This document shows positions 13,808 to 61,761 of a DNA stretch of 64,000 bases, piece after piece. The notes beneath the pieces were generated by a model, which was not told where the DNA came from, ran no database searches, and worked only from the letters and a program-made list of their open reading frames with translations. Within the stretch, counting starts at the first letter, position 1. Each line of letters opens with the position of its first letter. Source of the DNA: Felis catus (taxonomy: Eukaryota); contig NC_058377.1 of the NCBI RefSeq assembly GCF_018350175.1, positions 10,106,001 to 10,170,000 of the forward strand. The letters are read 5' to 3'. The translations under genes were made by a program, and so were the position numbers.

Positions 13808-14257
13808 GTAAGTCTGTCTCTGTGGAATGGGGTTGTAAAGATAAAACTCACTTGAGTTTCCTTCTTAAGACTAGCGAGTACAACTATACAGTCATCTTAC
13901 ATGGAACAGTGGGGACAAGGATGAGAGAGTGAAATAATCTCCTTTGTTGCCATCACAGATAGGGAAACTTGCGCTGTATTCAGTCCATTTAGTATCTACC
14001 TATATAGTATAGATAGCATTTTCTTTCTCGGTTCTTGGGAACTACTTAATTGTTGGTGAAAGTATAATGTGCTTGTGCAGCAAAGTTGAATTTTATGACT
14101 TGACCTTGTATTAAGAAGTCTCTGTTAGTGAACAAAACCTAAACCTGGGGTGATTTGAAATGACTTTGAATGATAGAATTCATATAAAACTGAACTAAAG
14201 CTCCTTGAGGGCAAAGGGAAATGTCTTACTCCTATCTTTCTCTCCCCAAAGAGAAAG

Positions 14258-14495
14258 TATAGCTTCGTGGTAAGAGTATGGGGTCTTGAATCAGACCATC
14301 TGGGGTTTAATCCTGGCTCTATCATCTTCTGTGTAATATGGCTTTAGATGAATTACTTGTGTATGTCTATAGATGAATTACTTAAACCATCTGCTCTTCC
14401 ATCTGTAAATCTGAAATAATGTGTACGTTAAAACAGGCAAAGGGCTTAAGACAATATCTAGAGTATAATAGGTACTCAACAAATGTTAGTTCTGT
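14258..14495 (+). mobile_element. MIR
   Basis: gtggtaagagtatggg..aatcctggctcta..ctgtaaa..ggtactcaacaaatgttag pattern. Confidence 0.7.
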
Positions 14496-14715
14496 TGATA
14501 TTAATATTATTGCCTGGCATTTAAATAAATGTCTTTGGGCTAAAATTAAATGTAAGGTAATTAGTGTACTTACTTGAACAAAGTGGAAATTACTAATCCT
14601 GAAGCCTGGTTTGATGGCTTCTGCTATGAGCTAGTCACTGAATTACCACATTTAGCACTTCTTTTCTTGAAATAAGAATTCTCATTCACCATTTTTTGGA
14701 TAAGAAGATACTCTT

Positions 14716-14945
14716 TTTTTTTTTAATTTTTATTTATTTTTGAAGGAGAGAGAGAGAGAGAGAGGGAGAGCGAGAGAGCGCATGAGCAGGGGAGGGACAG
14801 AGAGAGAGGGAGACACAGAATTCAAGGCAGGCTCCAGGATCTGAGCTGTCAGCACTCAGCCTGACGCGGGGCTCGAACTCAGACTGTGAGATTGTGACCT
14901 GAGCTGAAGTCAGACGCTTAACTGACTGAGCCACCCAGGTGCCCC
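14716..14945 (-). mobile_element. CAN-SINE
   Basis: Perfect 14-bp TSD AAGAAGATACTCTT at 14702 and 14946. Confidence 0.95.
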
Positions 14946-16195
14946 AAGAAGATACTCTTAAGGGATCTCCCATTATGTTAAGTAGTAAGTTGCAATTTGA
15001 GTCTAGATACTGGTTATTTCCCCAGTTGTCTGGCTGTGGGCATTCAGTGCTGGTTATCATCTGTCTGCTGGCTTTTGTTTCATGCTTGGAAGGCAAGCCA
15101 GTCCCCCAAAGAATAAGAATAGAATGTTGTAAATTTTTTGGACCTCAGAGGATTTTTATAATATTTTAAGATGCTTTTTTCCGTCTTCATGTTGTTTCAA
15201 TGGCATATGGCCACTTTTTTATGTTATTTGGGACTAGAATTAGCAAAGTAAGTTGGAATAGATTTTAAGGGGAGGAGGGGCTGGATTAATAATTATATCT
15301 GAAGAATTTAGACAAGTGAAGAAGGACCGTTAATGAGATACTTAGCAACATTGGCTGCCATACACAAGATGTGAGTGGGGAAATCCCCATGTTCTTATCA
15401 GGCAATTAGAGTTAGGTGATTCATTTACCAGTATTTAAAATTCATCAAGTGTTGTCTGTGCATCTAACACTTGTTCATAAGACAGACAAGATTTCAGTTT
15501 CAGATGCCTGTATTACCAACAATAAAGAGTTAAATGAACAGAAAGGGAATGCAGCTTAGTAGTTAGGAGTATGGGCTCCAGAGCTGGAATGCTCAGGTTT
15601 GAATCCTGGCTCTGCTGTACTCTAGCTTTATGACCTTTTATGTTTCGGTTTCTTCATTTCTGTATAAAAATAATGGCTTACACGTTTTGAGGATTAACTA
15701 AGTTAACAAAGAGTGCCTGCACATAGACAGCATATAGAGATATTAGCTGTAAAAATGAAAATAACCTGTTATTATTACATAAGATGAATGCCAAGAAAGA
15801 AACCAAGTGATACACTATTGAGTGACAAAGTGAATATATGTGCAGTCATGACTGCTTTTAGACATGGTGGTTGGGAAAGATCTTTCTGATGAGGTGAAAT
15901 TTGATATGACCTGAAAGATGAGGAGTCAGCTGTGAGCCAACCATGTGAAGAACTGGGCACAGAGAGACCAGTAGTACACATCTGAAGTGGGAGAGAGCTT
16001 GGCACGTCTGAGGAACATAGAGGAGGCCAGTGTTCATGGAGCATAGTGAGCAGAGGGTTTAGTGGAAGGAGGTGAGGTTGGAAAGAAGGTGAGGGGCGAG
16101 AAGCAGGAGCACTTTATGGGTCATTGTATAATTTGAATTTTATTAAAGCATAGTAGGAAGCCACTAAAAGATTAAAATAAGGACAGGTTTTTTGG

Positions 16196-16199
<4 letters not shown>

Positions 16200-16243
<44 letters not shown>

Positions 16244-16420
16244 AATTTTAGAGAGAGTGGAGCAGGACATAGGGGCAGAGGGAGAAACAGAAAGAATCCT
16301 AAGCAGGCTCCATGCTCAGCACAGAGCCTGACATGGGGCTCGATCCCACAACCTCAGAATCAAGTCCTGAGCTGAAATCAAGAATTGGGCACTCAACCAA
16401 CTGAGCCACCCAGGCGCTCC
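16200..16420 (-). mobile_element. CAN-SINE with (TG)n in its tail
   Basis: Reversed SINE 16241-16420; about 20 TG units at 16200-16240. Confidence 0.9.
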
Positions 16421-16837
16421 AATAGGGAAGTATTTTTAAAATATCATTTTAGCTGCTTTATGCAGATGGGTCAAGTGAAAGCCAACGTCCCTGTTAAGAG
16501 GCTTTTGCTGGAGCTGACAGTGGTGACTTTTCCAGCATGGTGACAGTGAAAATGGAAAGAAATGGACAGCTTCAAGATACGTTTTTGACAGAATCAACAG
16601 AACTTAGTCAAGGATGGTACATGGGGACTTGACAACAGTTACTTCAAAAGAAAGGTGTGGTGGAAGTCTGAGTAAGCCGAAAAGTAGAATATGCATGGAG
16701 AAGTGGAGATAGCTTTGTGGACAAGTCATTTAAGAAGCTTCACTATGAAGAAAGGCATAGAAATAGGACGTAGCTTAGGAGAATATGGGCTCAAGAGAGG
16801 GCTTTTGAGAGTGAGTGATAGTAGAAGAGGTCTAGTA

Positions 16838-17051
16838 TGGAGTTTCTCAGCTGTGGCAGAGTTGATATTTTTGACCAGATAATTTTTGTTTGGGGGAGGG
16901 AGATGTCTTGTGTTTTGTAGGATGCTCAGTAACATCCTAGGCTTCTACCCACTATGTCATAGTAGCATCGCCCACTTGTAACAACGGAAAACAACTTCAG
17001 ACATTGCCACATGTCCCCAGGGGGGCAAAATTGTGTTGGTGAGAACTAGTG
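16838..17051 (+). mobile_element. MER20 hAT DNA transposon
   Basis: MER20-like body; 8-bp TSD GTCTAGTA / GTCTAATA. Confidence 0.8.
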
Positions 17052-18369
17052 GTCTAATAGAAAGGGATAAATAGATGGTGAGGGAAGGGCAGAATAATTT
17101 GGCAAGAAACAGTTTTTGAAAATGTAGGAAGGAAAGGATTGGCTTTTGATAGGAATTAAGGACATTTTGTGTTATTTTTATAGGAAAGAGGAGAATATGG
17201 GGTGGATTTATAGGCTTGGTGGTGGAGGACGAGGAGAATAACTCTGCTGCAGTTTGATCAAGAAAGTCTGAAGTGAAGGTATCGGCTGGAGACTGAGTAT
17301 GGGGAGGTTTGCAGTTAGAGAATTTGTTAGGTAGTATTCTCAGGGAAAGTGAATTAGAAGGAAATATAACTTAGTTTCTGGGCAGTTTATGTGTCTATTT
17401 CAGGTTTGTGGCTCTGAATTTAGAGTATAATCAGTCACCTAAGTGTGTACTTTTTTTGTCCCCAACAGCATTACGCTACTCTGATGCTGGCACTGAGAAG
17501 GCAGACCTTTTTTTTCAAGTTTTTATTTAAATTCTAGTTAGTTAACATACACGGTAAAGTTGGTTTCAGGTGTAAAATTTAATGATTATATCACTTACGT
17601 ATAATACCCATGCTCATCCCAACAAGTGCTGTCCTTAATACTCATCTTGCATTTAGCCTATCCCATGGCCATCTCTCCATCAACCCACAGTTTGTTCTCT
17701 ATAGTTAAGAGTCTCTTATGGTTTGCTTTCCTCTTTTTTTTCCCCTTCCTCTGTGTTCATCTGTTTTGTTTCTTAAATTCCACATAGGAGTGAAATTATA
17801 TGGTATTCGTTTTTCTCTGACTGACTTGTTCTGCTTATCAAAATGCACTGTAGCTCCATCCACCTTGTTGCAAATGGCAAGATTTCATTCTTTTTGATTG
17901 CTGAGTGATACGCCATTTATGTATATACTATATTTTCATCAGTCGATGGACATTTGGACTCTTTCCATAGTTTGGCTATTGTCGGTAGCGCTGCTATAAA
18001 CATCAGAGGGCATGTGCCCCTTTGAACCTGTATTTTTGTATCCTTTGGGTAAATACCTAGTAGTACAATTGCTGGGTTATAGGGTAGTTCTATTTAACTT
18101 TTTCAGGAACCTCCATATTCCTCCAGAGTGGCTACACCAGTTTGCATTCCCACCAACAGTGTAAGAGGGTTCCCCTTTCTCCACATCCTTGCCAACACCT
18201 GTTGTTTCTTTTGTTGTTAATTTTAGCTATTCTGACAGGTGTGAGGTGGTATCTCATTGTGGTTTTGATTTGTATTTTCTTAATGATGAGTGATGTTGAG
18301 CATCGTCTCTGTTGGCCATCTGGATATCTTCTTTGGACAAATGTCGGTTCATGTCTTCTGCCCTTTTCT

Positions 18370-18571
18370 TTTTTCTTTTTTTATTTTGAAAGAGAGAGAG
18401 CATGAGCCGGGGAAGGTCAGAGAGAGAAAGAGAGAGAGAGCGCGTCCCAAGTAGGCTCCACACTGCCAGCACAGAGCCTGATGTGGGGCTTAAATCCACA
18501 AGCTGTGACATCGTGACTGGATCCAAAACCAAGAGTTGGACACTTAACTGACTGCGCCACCCAGGCTCCTC
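18370..18571 (-). mobile_element. CAN-SINE (older)
   Basis: Reversed SINE between TSD copies at 18354 and 18572. Confidence 0.9.
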
Positions 18572-18587
18572 TCTTCTGCCCATTTCT

Positions 18588-18809
18588 TTTTTAAAAATTT
18601 TTTTTTCAACGTTTATTTATTTTTGGGACAGAGAGAGACAGAGCATGAACGGGGGAAGGGCAGAGAGAGAGGGAGACACAGAATCGGAAACAGGCTCCAG
18701 GCTCTGAGCCATCAGCCCAGAGCCCGACGCGGGGCTCGAACTCACAGACCGCGAGATCGTGACCTGGCTGAAGTCGGACGCTTAACCGACTGCGCCACCC
18801 AGGCGCCCC
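18588..18809 (-). mobile_element. young felid CAN-SINE
   Basis: CpG-rich, near-consensus; identical TSD copies at 18572 and 18810. Confidence 0.95.
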
Positions 18810-19220
18810 TCTTCTGCCCATTTCTTAACTGGATTATTTATTTTTTGAGTGTTGAGTTTGATAACCTCTTTATAGATTTTGGATACTAACCCTTTATCAG
18901 ATGTCAGTGGCAGATGTCTTCTCCCATTCCATACTTGCCTTTTAGTTTTGTTGTTTCTTATGTTGTGCAGAAGCTTTTATCTTGATGAGATCCTAGTAGT
19001 TCATATTTGCTTTTGTTTCCCTTGAGCCGGCAGACATTTTAGATTTTGACCAGGGAGTGACTATAACCGTGATCCACCCATTGGAACCTGGGTGAGGAAG
19101 TGTAGGGGATAGGGAGATGGGAGCGGTCAAGTCAGTGGAGTGGGGGGTCTTGGTGAGACTGAAGAAATTTTGCAGTAGGAAGGAATGGTCTAGAATAAGC
19201 GAGCTGAGAGGATCAGTGAT

Positions 19221-19800
19221 TGCGTGGGGTTTTCTGACACCTCTCTGTCATCAAATGTATGTTTTTTTTCCACACCAACAATCCATTCTCTGCCACCATT
19301 TGGGTATCCAACACTTCAATCCTGTTCTGACACTAACTATCCAGAGTTAGCATTGGGCCCCCCAGGCTTGAGGGCTCAGCCCCACAAGACAGCCCCACTT
19401 CTGATGCCAGTTATAGGTCCCAGGACCACCCATACTTCAGACCTACTGGCTGTAAGTCAGGACTTCCCAAGACCCCACTTTAGGTATCAAAATTCACTAG
19501 AACGACTCACAGAACTCAGGAAAGCACTGTACTTACTGTTATTGGTTTACTGTAAAGGATGTGCAGGGGCAGTCAGTAGAAGAGATGCATAGGACGAGGA
19601 GTGGTTTGTGGTGGGGGGGTGCAAAGCTTGCATGCCCTCACTCGGAGGACTGCCCTCCTGGCACATTGATGTGTTCACCGACCCAGAAGCTCCAAATCTT
19701 GTTGTTAAGAGTATTTATTTGATAGAGATTTCAGTAAGAAGGCATGGTTATTTAAATCCTTGGCTGTGAACTGTTGAACTCAACCTCTAGTCCCCCCCCT
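19221..19800 (-). mobile_element. MER21-like ERVL LTR fragment
   Basis: gtggggttttctgac.., ttctgacactaac.., ccacaagacagccccacttctgatgcca, ctcacagaactcaggaaagcac. Confidence 0.7.
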
Positions 19801-21285
19801 CCCACCCCCACCCCCCTTTTTGGAGGGACAAATGACTTAGCAAATATGACTACTTGTAATCATTTGGGGAGAAACTTTCTTTTTTACGTTTATTTTTATT
19901 TGTTTTGAGAGAGAGCGCATATACATGCTCAGGGGAGGGGTGGAAGGAGAGAGAGTCCCAAGTAGGCTCTGTGCTGACAGACACCACCCAGGTGTCCCAG
20001 ACAGAAACCGTTTTAAAGCCTAAACCCTAGTGTCCAAGTTTGATTTGTCTCCCAGGTCCCCATGTTTGTTTTCTATTTCTTTGAGGCAAAGCACTTTCAC
20101 ATCACTATCCCATTTGATCTTCAGTGCTCACACATTCCTTTGAGCAGGGGCCGGCATTATAACCTGTGTCCTATAGATGAGACTAAAAAGACCAGCACAG
20201 AGGTTGTGTCTAATTTTTATCTGACACAGCCCTGCATTTTTCCTCCTAGCCCGGTGTTCTTCCCTTTATACCATATTGCTTTATGATGGCTTGTTGTGCC
20301 TCTGTAGGGAGGACAGAAACATTTAAAAGATTTCAGCTGACTCCTAATGGGAATTTCTTGAGGGTGGCTGAAGCCCAACCAAAGGCAGGTGATTCTGTAG
20401 GTCTCCTCCTCTCAAGGGGCTGTGGTGTCCAGATCAGCCTTGGTGGTAATGGGAGGTTATGGGTTCTGTCTTTTATAAAAGAGGAGAATCTAATAGGGGT
20501 ACTGCTACCTCTGTTCTAGAGCTCCGGGTGAGGATAAGCACAATCCTAGCCAACTCATTTTTCATAATGAAGGAAAGGAGTTGGGACGAACTGCGTACAA
20601 CAAGAATCCTTTTAAAAGTCTGCCTTGGGGGAAGATGAATCAATTTGACCAAATTTTTTCTAGAAGTGGGCCAGTATAAAAGGTATTTTAAATAACTAAA
20701 TTCTGAATCTCCTTAGAATTAAGGTTCAGGAATCTGTTTGGGTCTAAAGTTAAAGCTGATTGGTTGTGGATGGGAGGAGGAAGGAAATTGAGTGAAAATA
20801 AAACTCAGCCTGTTGTGAGAGGATTTTAAAGATTTTTCCTCACGTGTGACATTGCACACACTTCACTCCCAGGCCTCTGACATAGGCCGGGTGAGAGCCT
20901 TGGCAAGTGTGACAGAGCTGTGAGTGATGGAGCCCACACGAGGAAGAAACAATTGTAGAGATAAGATCATTGCAGCTGAGAGTTATTCAAGCTATTTTGG
21001 AGTGAAAAAATTATCTGAAATAGTTGTCCTGTTGACTCTGTACAAAAGGAATTCTTTACGATCAAACGAATCTAGAACTCAAACGAGATCCATTTCAAGG
21101 TTCAGAAAGGGGTTTTTTTGGAGCTGCCTAGAGAAGAGGCAGCTAGACTTTGTTTTGGAGGTATCAGCATTAGCCATATGCCAGTATTTCCCAATTTAAA
21201 ACTAAAGGACATGAAAAAATGAAGAACAAACTGATACAAAACTCTGAAAGAGAAATACTTAACAAAGAGCATTTGCTGCCACAGG

Positions 21286-21322
21286 GTTTCCGTAGTGTAG
21301 CGGTTATCACATTCACCTAACA
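21286..21322 (+). pseudogene. tailless retropseudogene of the 5' half of tRNA-Val
   Basis: GTTTCCGTAGTGTAGCGGTTATCACATTCACCTAACA = tRNA-Val 5' end to the anticodon loop; 13-bp direct repeat AGAGCATTTGCTG (21266, 21322); no poly(A). Confidence 0.88.
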
Positions 21323-21578
21323 GAGCATTTGCTGTAGTAATTAAGAAAAGAATGGCTACAGCTCAAACAAGAGCACTCTGTGAATCAAAATTAATAATTG
21401 CATAAAAGCTGCTATTGTTTTTAGAGAGAACTTTAAGGTGCAGGAGTAGAGCAGTGACCACTTCAGAGGGTCTTTGGTAGAGAACCCTTAGAACTTGCAC
21501 TTCAGGATCACAGTGTCGATATCCTGGAGGAACCAGTGGTGTGCTGTCACATGTGTGATATTTATGCGTCTCTTCCAG

Positions 21579-21646
21579 GGACGGGACCAGAAGGCAGAAT
21601 CATCAAGAAGGATATCGACTCTTTTGTGCCTACTAAAGCTGCTCCT
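21579..21646 (+). CDS. DLAT: DLAT exon 8
   Basis: (G)TGPEGRIIKKDIDSFVPTKAAP; cag / gtgagt. Confidence 0.96.
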
Positions 21647-39456: not shown

Positions 39457-39575
39457 CTAAAAAGCAAATTTTCATATCTCAAAACCTAGTTGTTTTTTTT
39501 AATCGTAGCCTAAAGTTAACTCAGATAATTTTATGCTCTAAAATAGCCATTCTGTGTATTAAAACTGTGTTTGAG

Positions 39576-40097
39576 CCCTTTCACGAAGACGGCACCTAAG
39601 GCGAAGAAGGAAGCCCCTGACCCTCCCAATGCCAAGGCCAAAGTAAAGGCTTTGAAGGCCAAGAAAGCAGTACGGAAAGGCATCCAGGGGCATAAAAAAA
39701 AAGGAGATCCGCACATCACCTACATTCCAATGGCTCAAGACACCGCGTCTCCAAAGGCAACCCGAATATCCTCGTTAACAGAGCCCCCAGGAGAAACAAG
39801 CTTGACCAGTCTTTCCCCGTGACTACTGAGCCAGCCATGAAGAAAATAGAAAACAACACACTTGTGTTTGTTGGGGATGTCAAGGCCAACAAGCACCAGA
39901 TCAAACAGGCTGTGAAGAAGCTCTATGACACTGACGTGGCCAAGGTCAACACTCTGATCAGGCCCGAGGGAGAAAAGAAAGCATATGTTCGACTGGCTCC
40001 TGACTATGATGCTTTGGATGCTGCCAACAAAATTGGGATCATCTAAACTGAGTCCAGCTAGCTAAATCTAAATTTTTCACCATAAAAAAAATAAAAC
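39576..40097 (+). pseudogene. RPL23A: RPL23A processed pseudogene
   Basis: Intronless; APKAKKEAP...[12 protein letters not shown]...[19 protein letters not shown]; ATG changed to ACG, frameshifts, A tail, 15-bp TSD AAAACTGTGT(T/C)TGAG. Confidence 0.96.
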
Positions 40098-55908: not shown

Positions 55909-56120
55909 ATTTATTTATTTATTTAAAGTTTATTTTGAGAGAGTGCGCATGCGAGCAGGTGAGGGGGGAGAGAGAGAGAGAGAGAGAGAGAGTGCGAGCA
56001 AGCAGGCTCCACACTGCTAGAACAGAGCCCCATATGGGGCTTGAACCCATGAATCGTGAGATCATGACCTGAGTCAAAATCAAGAGTCAGACCCTCAACC
56101 AACTGAGCCACACAGGTGCC
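55909..56120 (-). mobile_element. CAN-SINE
   Basis: TSD CTATAATTTACT. Confidence 0.9.
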
Positions 56121-61538: not shown

Positions 61539-61761
61539 GGGGCGCCTGGGTGGCGCAGTCGGTTAAGCGTCCGACTTCAGCCAGGTCACAATCTCGCGGT
61601 CCGTGAGTTCGAGCCCCGCGTCAGGCTCTGGGCTGATGGCTCAGAGCCTGGAGCCTGTTTCCGATTCTGTGTCTCCCTCTCTCTCTGCCCTTCCCCGGTT
61701 CATGCTCTGTCTCTCTCTGTCCCAAAAATAAATAAAAAACGTTGAAAAAAAAATTTGAAAA
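61539..61761 (+). mobile_element. young felid CAN-SINE
   Basis: TSD AGAAAGTGTTAATT.T at 61523 and 61762. Confidence 0.95.

Follow-up and report, generated by a model that had tools for sequence, protein, structure and literature searches.

The sequence supports the view that a short element in intron 7 of DLAT is a tailless retrocopy of tRNA-Val, flanked by a target-site duplication (TSD) and primed by microhomology. Its probable origin is L1 TPRT of an intact precursor tRNA-Val(AAC), primed in the anticodon loop, with an ancestor of the Val-AAC gene L008 as the probable source. The DLAT-intron copy is an ordinary case, its class being known from mammals, and leader-bearing tailless copies have been published before. 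Its features are listed below with their positions in the window, that is, the whole 64-kb stretch of DNA that was analysed.

About 13808-21578, + strand: host intron, DLAT intron 7 (from coding exons and Pfam domains).
21259-21264, + strand: L1-endonuclease-like site TT/AACA, with a putative nick between 21260 and 21261 (from the sequence and the family flank profile).
21261-21278, + strand: left TSD in the extended parse, 18 nt, ending in the 13 nt of the perfect repeat (21266-21278; from local alignment).
21279-21285, + strand: seven additional bases that are likely the remnant of a pre-tRNA 5' leader after decay (L008 matches best among 22 distinct gene upstreams, 5/7).
21286-21322, + strand: tRNA-Val nt 1-37, which include the A box but lack a B box (from comparison with tRNA-Val genes).
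21319-21334, + strand: right TSD, 16 nt and thus 2 nt shorter than the left, its first 4 nt overlapping tRNA nt 34-37.
21579-21646, + strand: DLAT exon 8, 244 nt 3' of the insert and on the same strand (from Pfam).

Compared with eight identical Val-AAC gene bodies, the tRNA part showed three differences, at nt 16, 26 and 30. Two of the three CpGs of the body are decayed (nt 26 and 30), and nt 16 is a C. The 5' end is complete (nt 1 is present), the 3' end lies at nt 37 of 73 and no A-tail follows the insert. The sequence-only reading had correctly described the 5' part of a tRNA-Val that ends in the anticodon loop, the missing poly(A) tail and the seven extra bases between the left repeat and tRNA nt 1. 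No B-box motif was found in 21286-21600, and neither ARAGORN nor Rfam called a tRNA at the insert (7 chance Rfam matches, all below gathering). A complete cloverleaf is absent, so by that criterion the copy is not a functional tRNA gene; nor does it have the combination of A box, B box and A-tail by which tRNA-derived SINEs are recognized, being without B box and without tail. From its sequence, the copy without B box is predicted to be inert.

By eye, with the human exon layout as a guide, seven coding exons of DLAT were picked out upstream of the insert. The intron number 7 is correct, since the E3-binding domain detected by Pfam straddles exons 7 and 8, and Pfam identified lipoyl and catalytic domains in three further DLAT exons tested. 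Upstream exons and Pfam domain together confirmed the location that had been proposed before. The insert is in sense orientation relative to DLAT. Elsewhere in the window, we observed a frameshifted stretch at 39547-40046 (+ strand), the translation of which we take to resemble ribosomal protein L23a, probably as a processed pseudogene. ARAGORN called a tRNA-Gln at 56025-56108 (- strand) and a tRNA-Ala at 61544-61628 (+ strand), 84-85 nt in length, which are probably the heads of tRNA-derived SINEs.

The insert is bracketed by a perfect 13-bp direct repeat (21266-21278 and 21322-21334). As the sequence-only reading had stated, this repeat is perfect, and it gave 2 matches in the 64-kb window versus 0 in 100 shuffles. 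The motif TAACA, reported to lie just before the left repeat, is indeed present (21260-21264), but one base (A21265) intervenes and it is not immediately adjacent. It therefore more plausibly opens a longer TSD with a gap, and in a local alignment the duplication continued through TAACA once a gap of 2 nt was allowed. Judged from the sequence, the better parse would be a nick at TT/AACA and an 18-nt duplication whose right copy is short by 2 nt, presumably because the A-run of one TSD copy gained or lost 2 nt. On the gapped parse the target pairs with the RNA end over 4-5 nt, compared to 1 nt on the 13-bp parse. In the established TPRT mechanism the primer must derive from inside the duplicated stretch (Noll 2015, PMC5322556), and homology outside the duplication consequently makes little sense. 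The nick at TT/AACA is close to the L1 endonuclease consensus TT/AAAA, as cited in the same article (PMC5322556).

The TSD and the TT/A site point to L1 ORF2p as the putative agent. In the preferred reading, ORF2p would have nicked the intron at TT/AACA, and the freed DNA end would have paired with anticodon-loop nt 34-37. Reverse transcriptase would then have copied to the RNA 5' end, including a leader uncut by RNase P, and second-strand cleavage 18 nt away would have led to the target-site duplication. Later neutral decay would account for the loss of two CpGs from the body and of one from the leader, for two other transitions and for the indel between the TSD copies. The nick position, the internal priming and the source gene are what we infer here. 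Taken by itself, a single copy fits internal priming and a pre-cut RNA ending at nt 37 alike; internal priming was favoured by Noll 2015 from 5S and U2 data (PMC5322556). The repeat, the gapped TSD with its loop pairing and the endpoints of the family described below support the earlier proposal of a tailless, TSD-flanked retrocopy primed by microhomology.

A CpG-tolerant search of the genome G000 with up to 3 mismatches returned 69 matches, which is a lower bound, versus 0 for the reversed control. Parsing separated 28 matches with the tRNA 3' part from 41 without it. Dropping L029 and L030, which have the same flanks as L028, left 39 independent 3'-truncated Val copies. One flank and one TSD are common to all five of L028-L030, L054 and L057, three of which are located on C2 within 0.4 Mb; they reflect either a single insertion that was copied afterwards along with the repeat or segment hosting it, or several hits at the same site. 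Of this shared-flank set only L029 and L030 were removed, and n=39 may thus overcount by two. TSDs of 11-24 nt scoring at least 20 were detected in 33 of the 39 copies; the counts out of 33 leave out L035, L060 and L067 (no anchored TSD alignment) as well as L031, L037 and L063 (score under 20).

The 3' endpoint is at nt 37-38 in 27 of the 39 copies and at nt 34-39 in 36, and tRNA end and right TSD overlap by 1-7 nt in 26 of 33. Left flanks are T-rich (17, 16 and 14 of 33 copies have T at -1, -2 and -3, respectively), followed by A, C and A where tRNA nt 35, 36 and 37 would fall (20, 23 and 29 of 33 copies). The target sites of the family pair with tRNA nt 35-38. Targets were therefore selected for loop pairing, implying that these loop bases were present in the RNA.

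The sequence-only reading had gone further and taken the DLAT-intron copy for a fossil of a 5' half, or of an anticodon-truncated precursor, which we do not favour. In such a scenario, the template would have been a 5' tRNA half, or a precursor, that had been cut at about nt 37 beforehand and was captured by its 3' end. The copy does end inside the anticodon loop; its likely leader, however, points to a precursor, and tRNA halves are usually cut from mature tRNA. A preprint describes tRNA breakpoints at nt 1-37 in L1 chimeras and interprets them as halves (10.1101/2025.02.02.635956). Against this, the family targets pair with nt 35-38, past the 30-33 nt reported for circulating 5' halves (PMC3654920), and Noll 2015, arguing for internal priming, states that no truncated intermediate, adenylated or sequenced, was found for 5S or U2, a test that did not extend to tRNA (PMC5322556). 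We therefore regard a pre-cut template as distinctly unlikely. A related idea, which we rate as improbable, is that the RNA was a 'pre-tRNA half', namely a leader-bearing precursor tRNA-Val(AAC), unedited at A34, that had already been cut in the germline anticodon loop. If this were true, the family, together with its inosine-as-G copies and with L007 and L038, would preserve intermediates of tRNA-Val processing, circular ones among them, in a form that can be dated. An origin independent of L1, either as a fragment captured during repair or as a full tRNA gene or copy with its 3' half deleted, would suit the 13-bp repeat taken alone as TSD, which puts the nick at a non-endonuclease-like site with a 1-nt overlap. 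The long flanking duplication, the intact 5' end and an endpoint common to 27/39 unlinked copies speak against it, making it very improbable.

We consider it likely that the seven extra bases are a precursor leader of some kind. The exact 7-mer followed by the tRNA start had no match in G000 apart from the DLAT-intron site, and no template for it was found within 1 kb of flank. The number of extra 5' bases differs among the copies (7 have none, 10 have 1-3, 14 have 4-12 and 2 have more than 12). The 14 extras of 4-12 nt were scored against 22 distinct gene upstreams, with random sequence at three base compositions as nulls and with decay rates estimated from the copies' own bodies. For seven of the 14, including that of the DLAT-intron copy, a gene upstream matched with p no higher than about 0.06; in six of these seven, copy and gene are of the same isoacceptor if G34 is taken as AAC. 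The extras of L041 matched the upstream of the C17 Val-CAC cluster at 9/9 bases (p <= 1e-4). For the other seven, no convincing match was found among the 22 gene upstreams.

For the DLAT-intron copy the best upstream was that of L008 (G000:C13:2835853), a Val-AAC gene, with 5 of 7 bases matching. Both mismatches are transitions, one at a CpG and one elsewhere. The match has p = 0.008, 0.022 and 0.030 at the three base compositions, each a single-test value among 14 extras scored, and its log-likelihood of -5.0 compares with -9.5 for the next gene (4.5 log units apart). In addition, L008 has the same anticodon, AAC, as the copy. A leader-anchored search yielded L008, L013 and the DLAT-intron site as the only tRNA-related matches, next to two weak others; a control pattern gave 24 matches. 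The candidates L075 and L076 from this search were rejected, with identities of 20/37 and 17/37, about half of which is forced by the pattern. An ancestor of L008 thus seems a rather likely source of the copy. The suggestion of a pre-tRNA leader is upheld as probable by the decayed 5/7 match to a Val-AAC upstream, but not in its exact form: a tRNA-Val gene carrying the exact 7-mer directly upstream of +1, whose absence the sequence-only reading had set as a refutation of the leader idea, was not found in G000.

The same L1 tailless insertion could have started from a Val-CAC RNA with C16, of the L006 type or of the decayed L040 type. A34 would then come from the target primer, and the 7-mer would be untemplated or a changed or lost leader. 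C16 is found in no AAC gene, in three CAC genes (L006, L040 and L049) and in 5 of the 39 truncated copies. From L006 the body differs only at the two CpGs and at nt 34; L040 has both C16 and A26, and its upstream yields the 7-mer, by eye, if 5 bases are skipped. However, L006 and L040 are both outside the two best ungapped leader matches, and the body of L040 differs at nt 6, 9, 30, 34 and 37. C16 does not fix the source either, because it is also present in L043, an AAC-type copy with G34, and in L007, the extra bases of which nevertheless resemble T16 genes. The resemblance to a Val-CAC isodecoder that had been suggested in the sequence-only reading holds for the body alone, where the two types tie, whereas CAC loses on the leader. 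With its C16 and A26, the 29-nt start has no exact match in G000 other than the DLAT-intron site, and no present-day isodecoder therefore matches exactly. We conclude that a CAC template is unlikely.

Nucleotide 34 was also considered as proof of a precursor template, which we rejected. A34 may be target-derived, and I34 has been seen at low frequency already on precursor tRNAs (PMC4446420). Since A34 is within the primer overlap and I34 occurs on precursors, it is weak evidence. Within the family, 12 of the 39 copies have G34 (L024, L025, L039, L043, L047, L053, L057 and others), which is absent from the full-length genes recovered and is likely inosine read as G during reverse transcription. 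Among the 16 copies that have at least 4 extra bases, 5 carry G34. One of the G34 copies, L039, shows a 5/6 leader match to the AAC gene L012, which fits editing before leader removal. L024 and L043 have C33-G34 in place of T33, against the usual CpG direction. The family keeps leader ends together with an inosine read-out and could help to locate former Pol III start sites and to order the steps of tRNA processing.

Two sister copies are more unusual than the DLAT-intron copy. L038 (G000:C11:151600055-151600125, + strand) is a tailless Val copy with a perfect 17-nt TSD and 17 extra 5' bases, which are decayed tRNA nt 60-73 plus CCA joined directly to G1. This suggests that L038 is circularly permuted and derives from a circular or ligated mature tRNA or from a template jump. 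L007 (G000:C11:82940985-82941090, - strand) is a tailless Val-CAC copy with a perfect 18-nt TSD. Its 30 extra bases consist of tRNA nt 54-73 and about 9 linker bases similar to trailer plus leader; in gene L005 both trailer and leader resemble this linker, or alternatively the trailer of L009 does. A circular or jumped precursor is possible in this case, and we take the sequence around L007 to be L1 ORF2-like. None of 2000 shuffles reached the 3'-end score of either copy, where the null used the tail of one gene and the observed score is the best of all genes. Looking for more CCA-to-G1 junctions returned only L038, and a non-exhaustive literature search retrieved no circularly permuted tRNA retrocopy.

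The class to which the DLAT-intron copy belongs was delineated by Noll et al. 2015 (PMC5322556), who report tRNA-derived tailless retropseudogenes from Schmitz et al. 2004 and describe processed and unprocessed tailless tRNA copies, a target complementarity of 2-18 nt and internal priming. Their screen asked for a complete 5' end with up to 20 nt of precursor before +1, a 3' truncation of at least 10 nt at a loop, a length of at least 30 nt, no oligo(A) and TSDs of 8-35 nt that are at least 70% identical (PMC5322556). In the DLAT-intron copy nt 1 is present with 7 nt between TSD and tRNA start, the copy ends at nt 37 of 73 without oligo(A), and the TSD is 13 nt and perfect, or 18/16 nt with one gap. 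Set beside the class as Noll et al. present it, the copy agrees in 5' completeness, loop truncation, lack of oligo(A), TSD and bases before +1, and differs only in species (the cat is not named in their main text), locus and the 2-nt TSD mismatch (PMC5322556). Their supplements list human cases, which may include Val precursors (PMC5322556). In tRNA-half/LINE-1 chimeras (bioRxiv 10.1101/2025.02.02.635956), tRNA nt 1-37 are described as retrotransposed by L1, but the DLAT-intron copy, as compared with the chimeras described there, has no L1 segment inside its TSDs. It would be a further example of a precursor tRNA copied by L1, with a source gene that can tentatively be named. tRNA-derived SINEs, too, are tRNA-derived, mobilised by L1 and flanked by TSDs. 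Unlike them, the DLAT-intron copy has no B box, SINE body or A-tail, and each such copy stems from the transcript of a tRNA gene rather than from a master element.

Of the 24 runs listed, 20 (organism A, from 10 studies) contained every word sampled; 14 of them may be the window's own source, and in run X18 a single identical contig spans almost the whole stretch. The insert looks fixed in organism A, with empty alleles possible. Organism B (run X21) has a single contig with matches to 21170-21201 and then to 21457-21491, separated by 145 letters compared to the window's 255. No tRNA piece was recovered from this contig, and the sole tRNA-like piece of X21 is on another contig. The shortfall of 110 nt exceeds the 56-nt insert, and the contig would be compatible with an absence of the insert in organism B. 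In runs X15 and X24 no contig extended over the flanks. A pattern for the empty site gave 0 matches in metagenome contigs. As a neutral intronic fossil, the copy is a possible presence/absence marker for carnivore phylogeny, and the decay of two of its three body CpGs suggests that the insertion is old.
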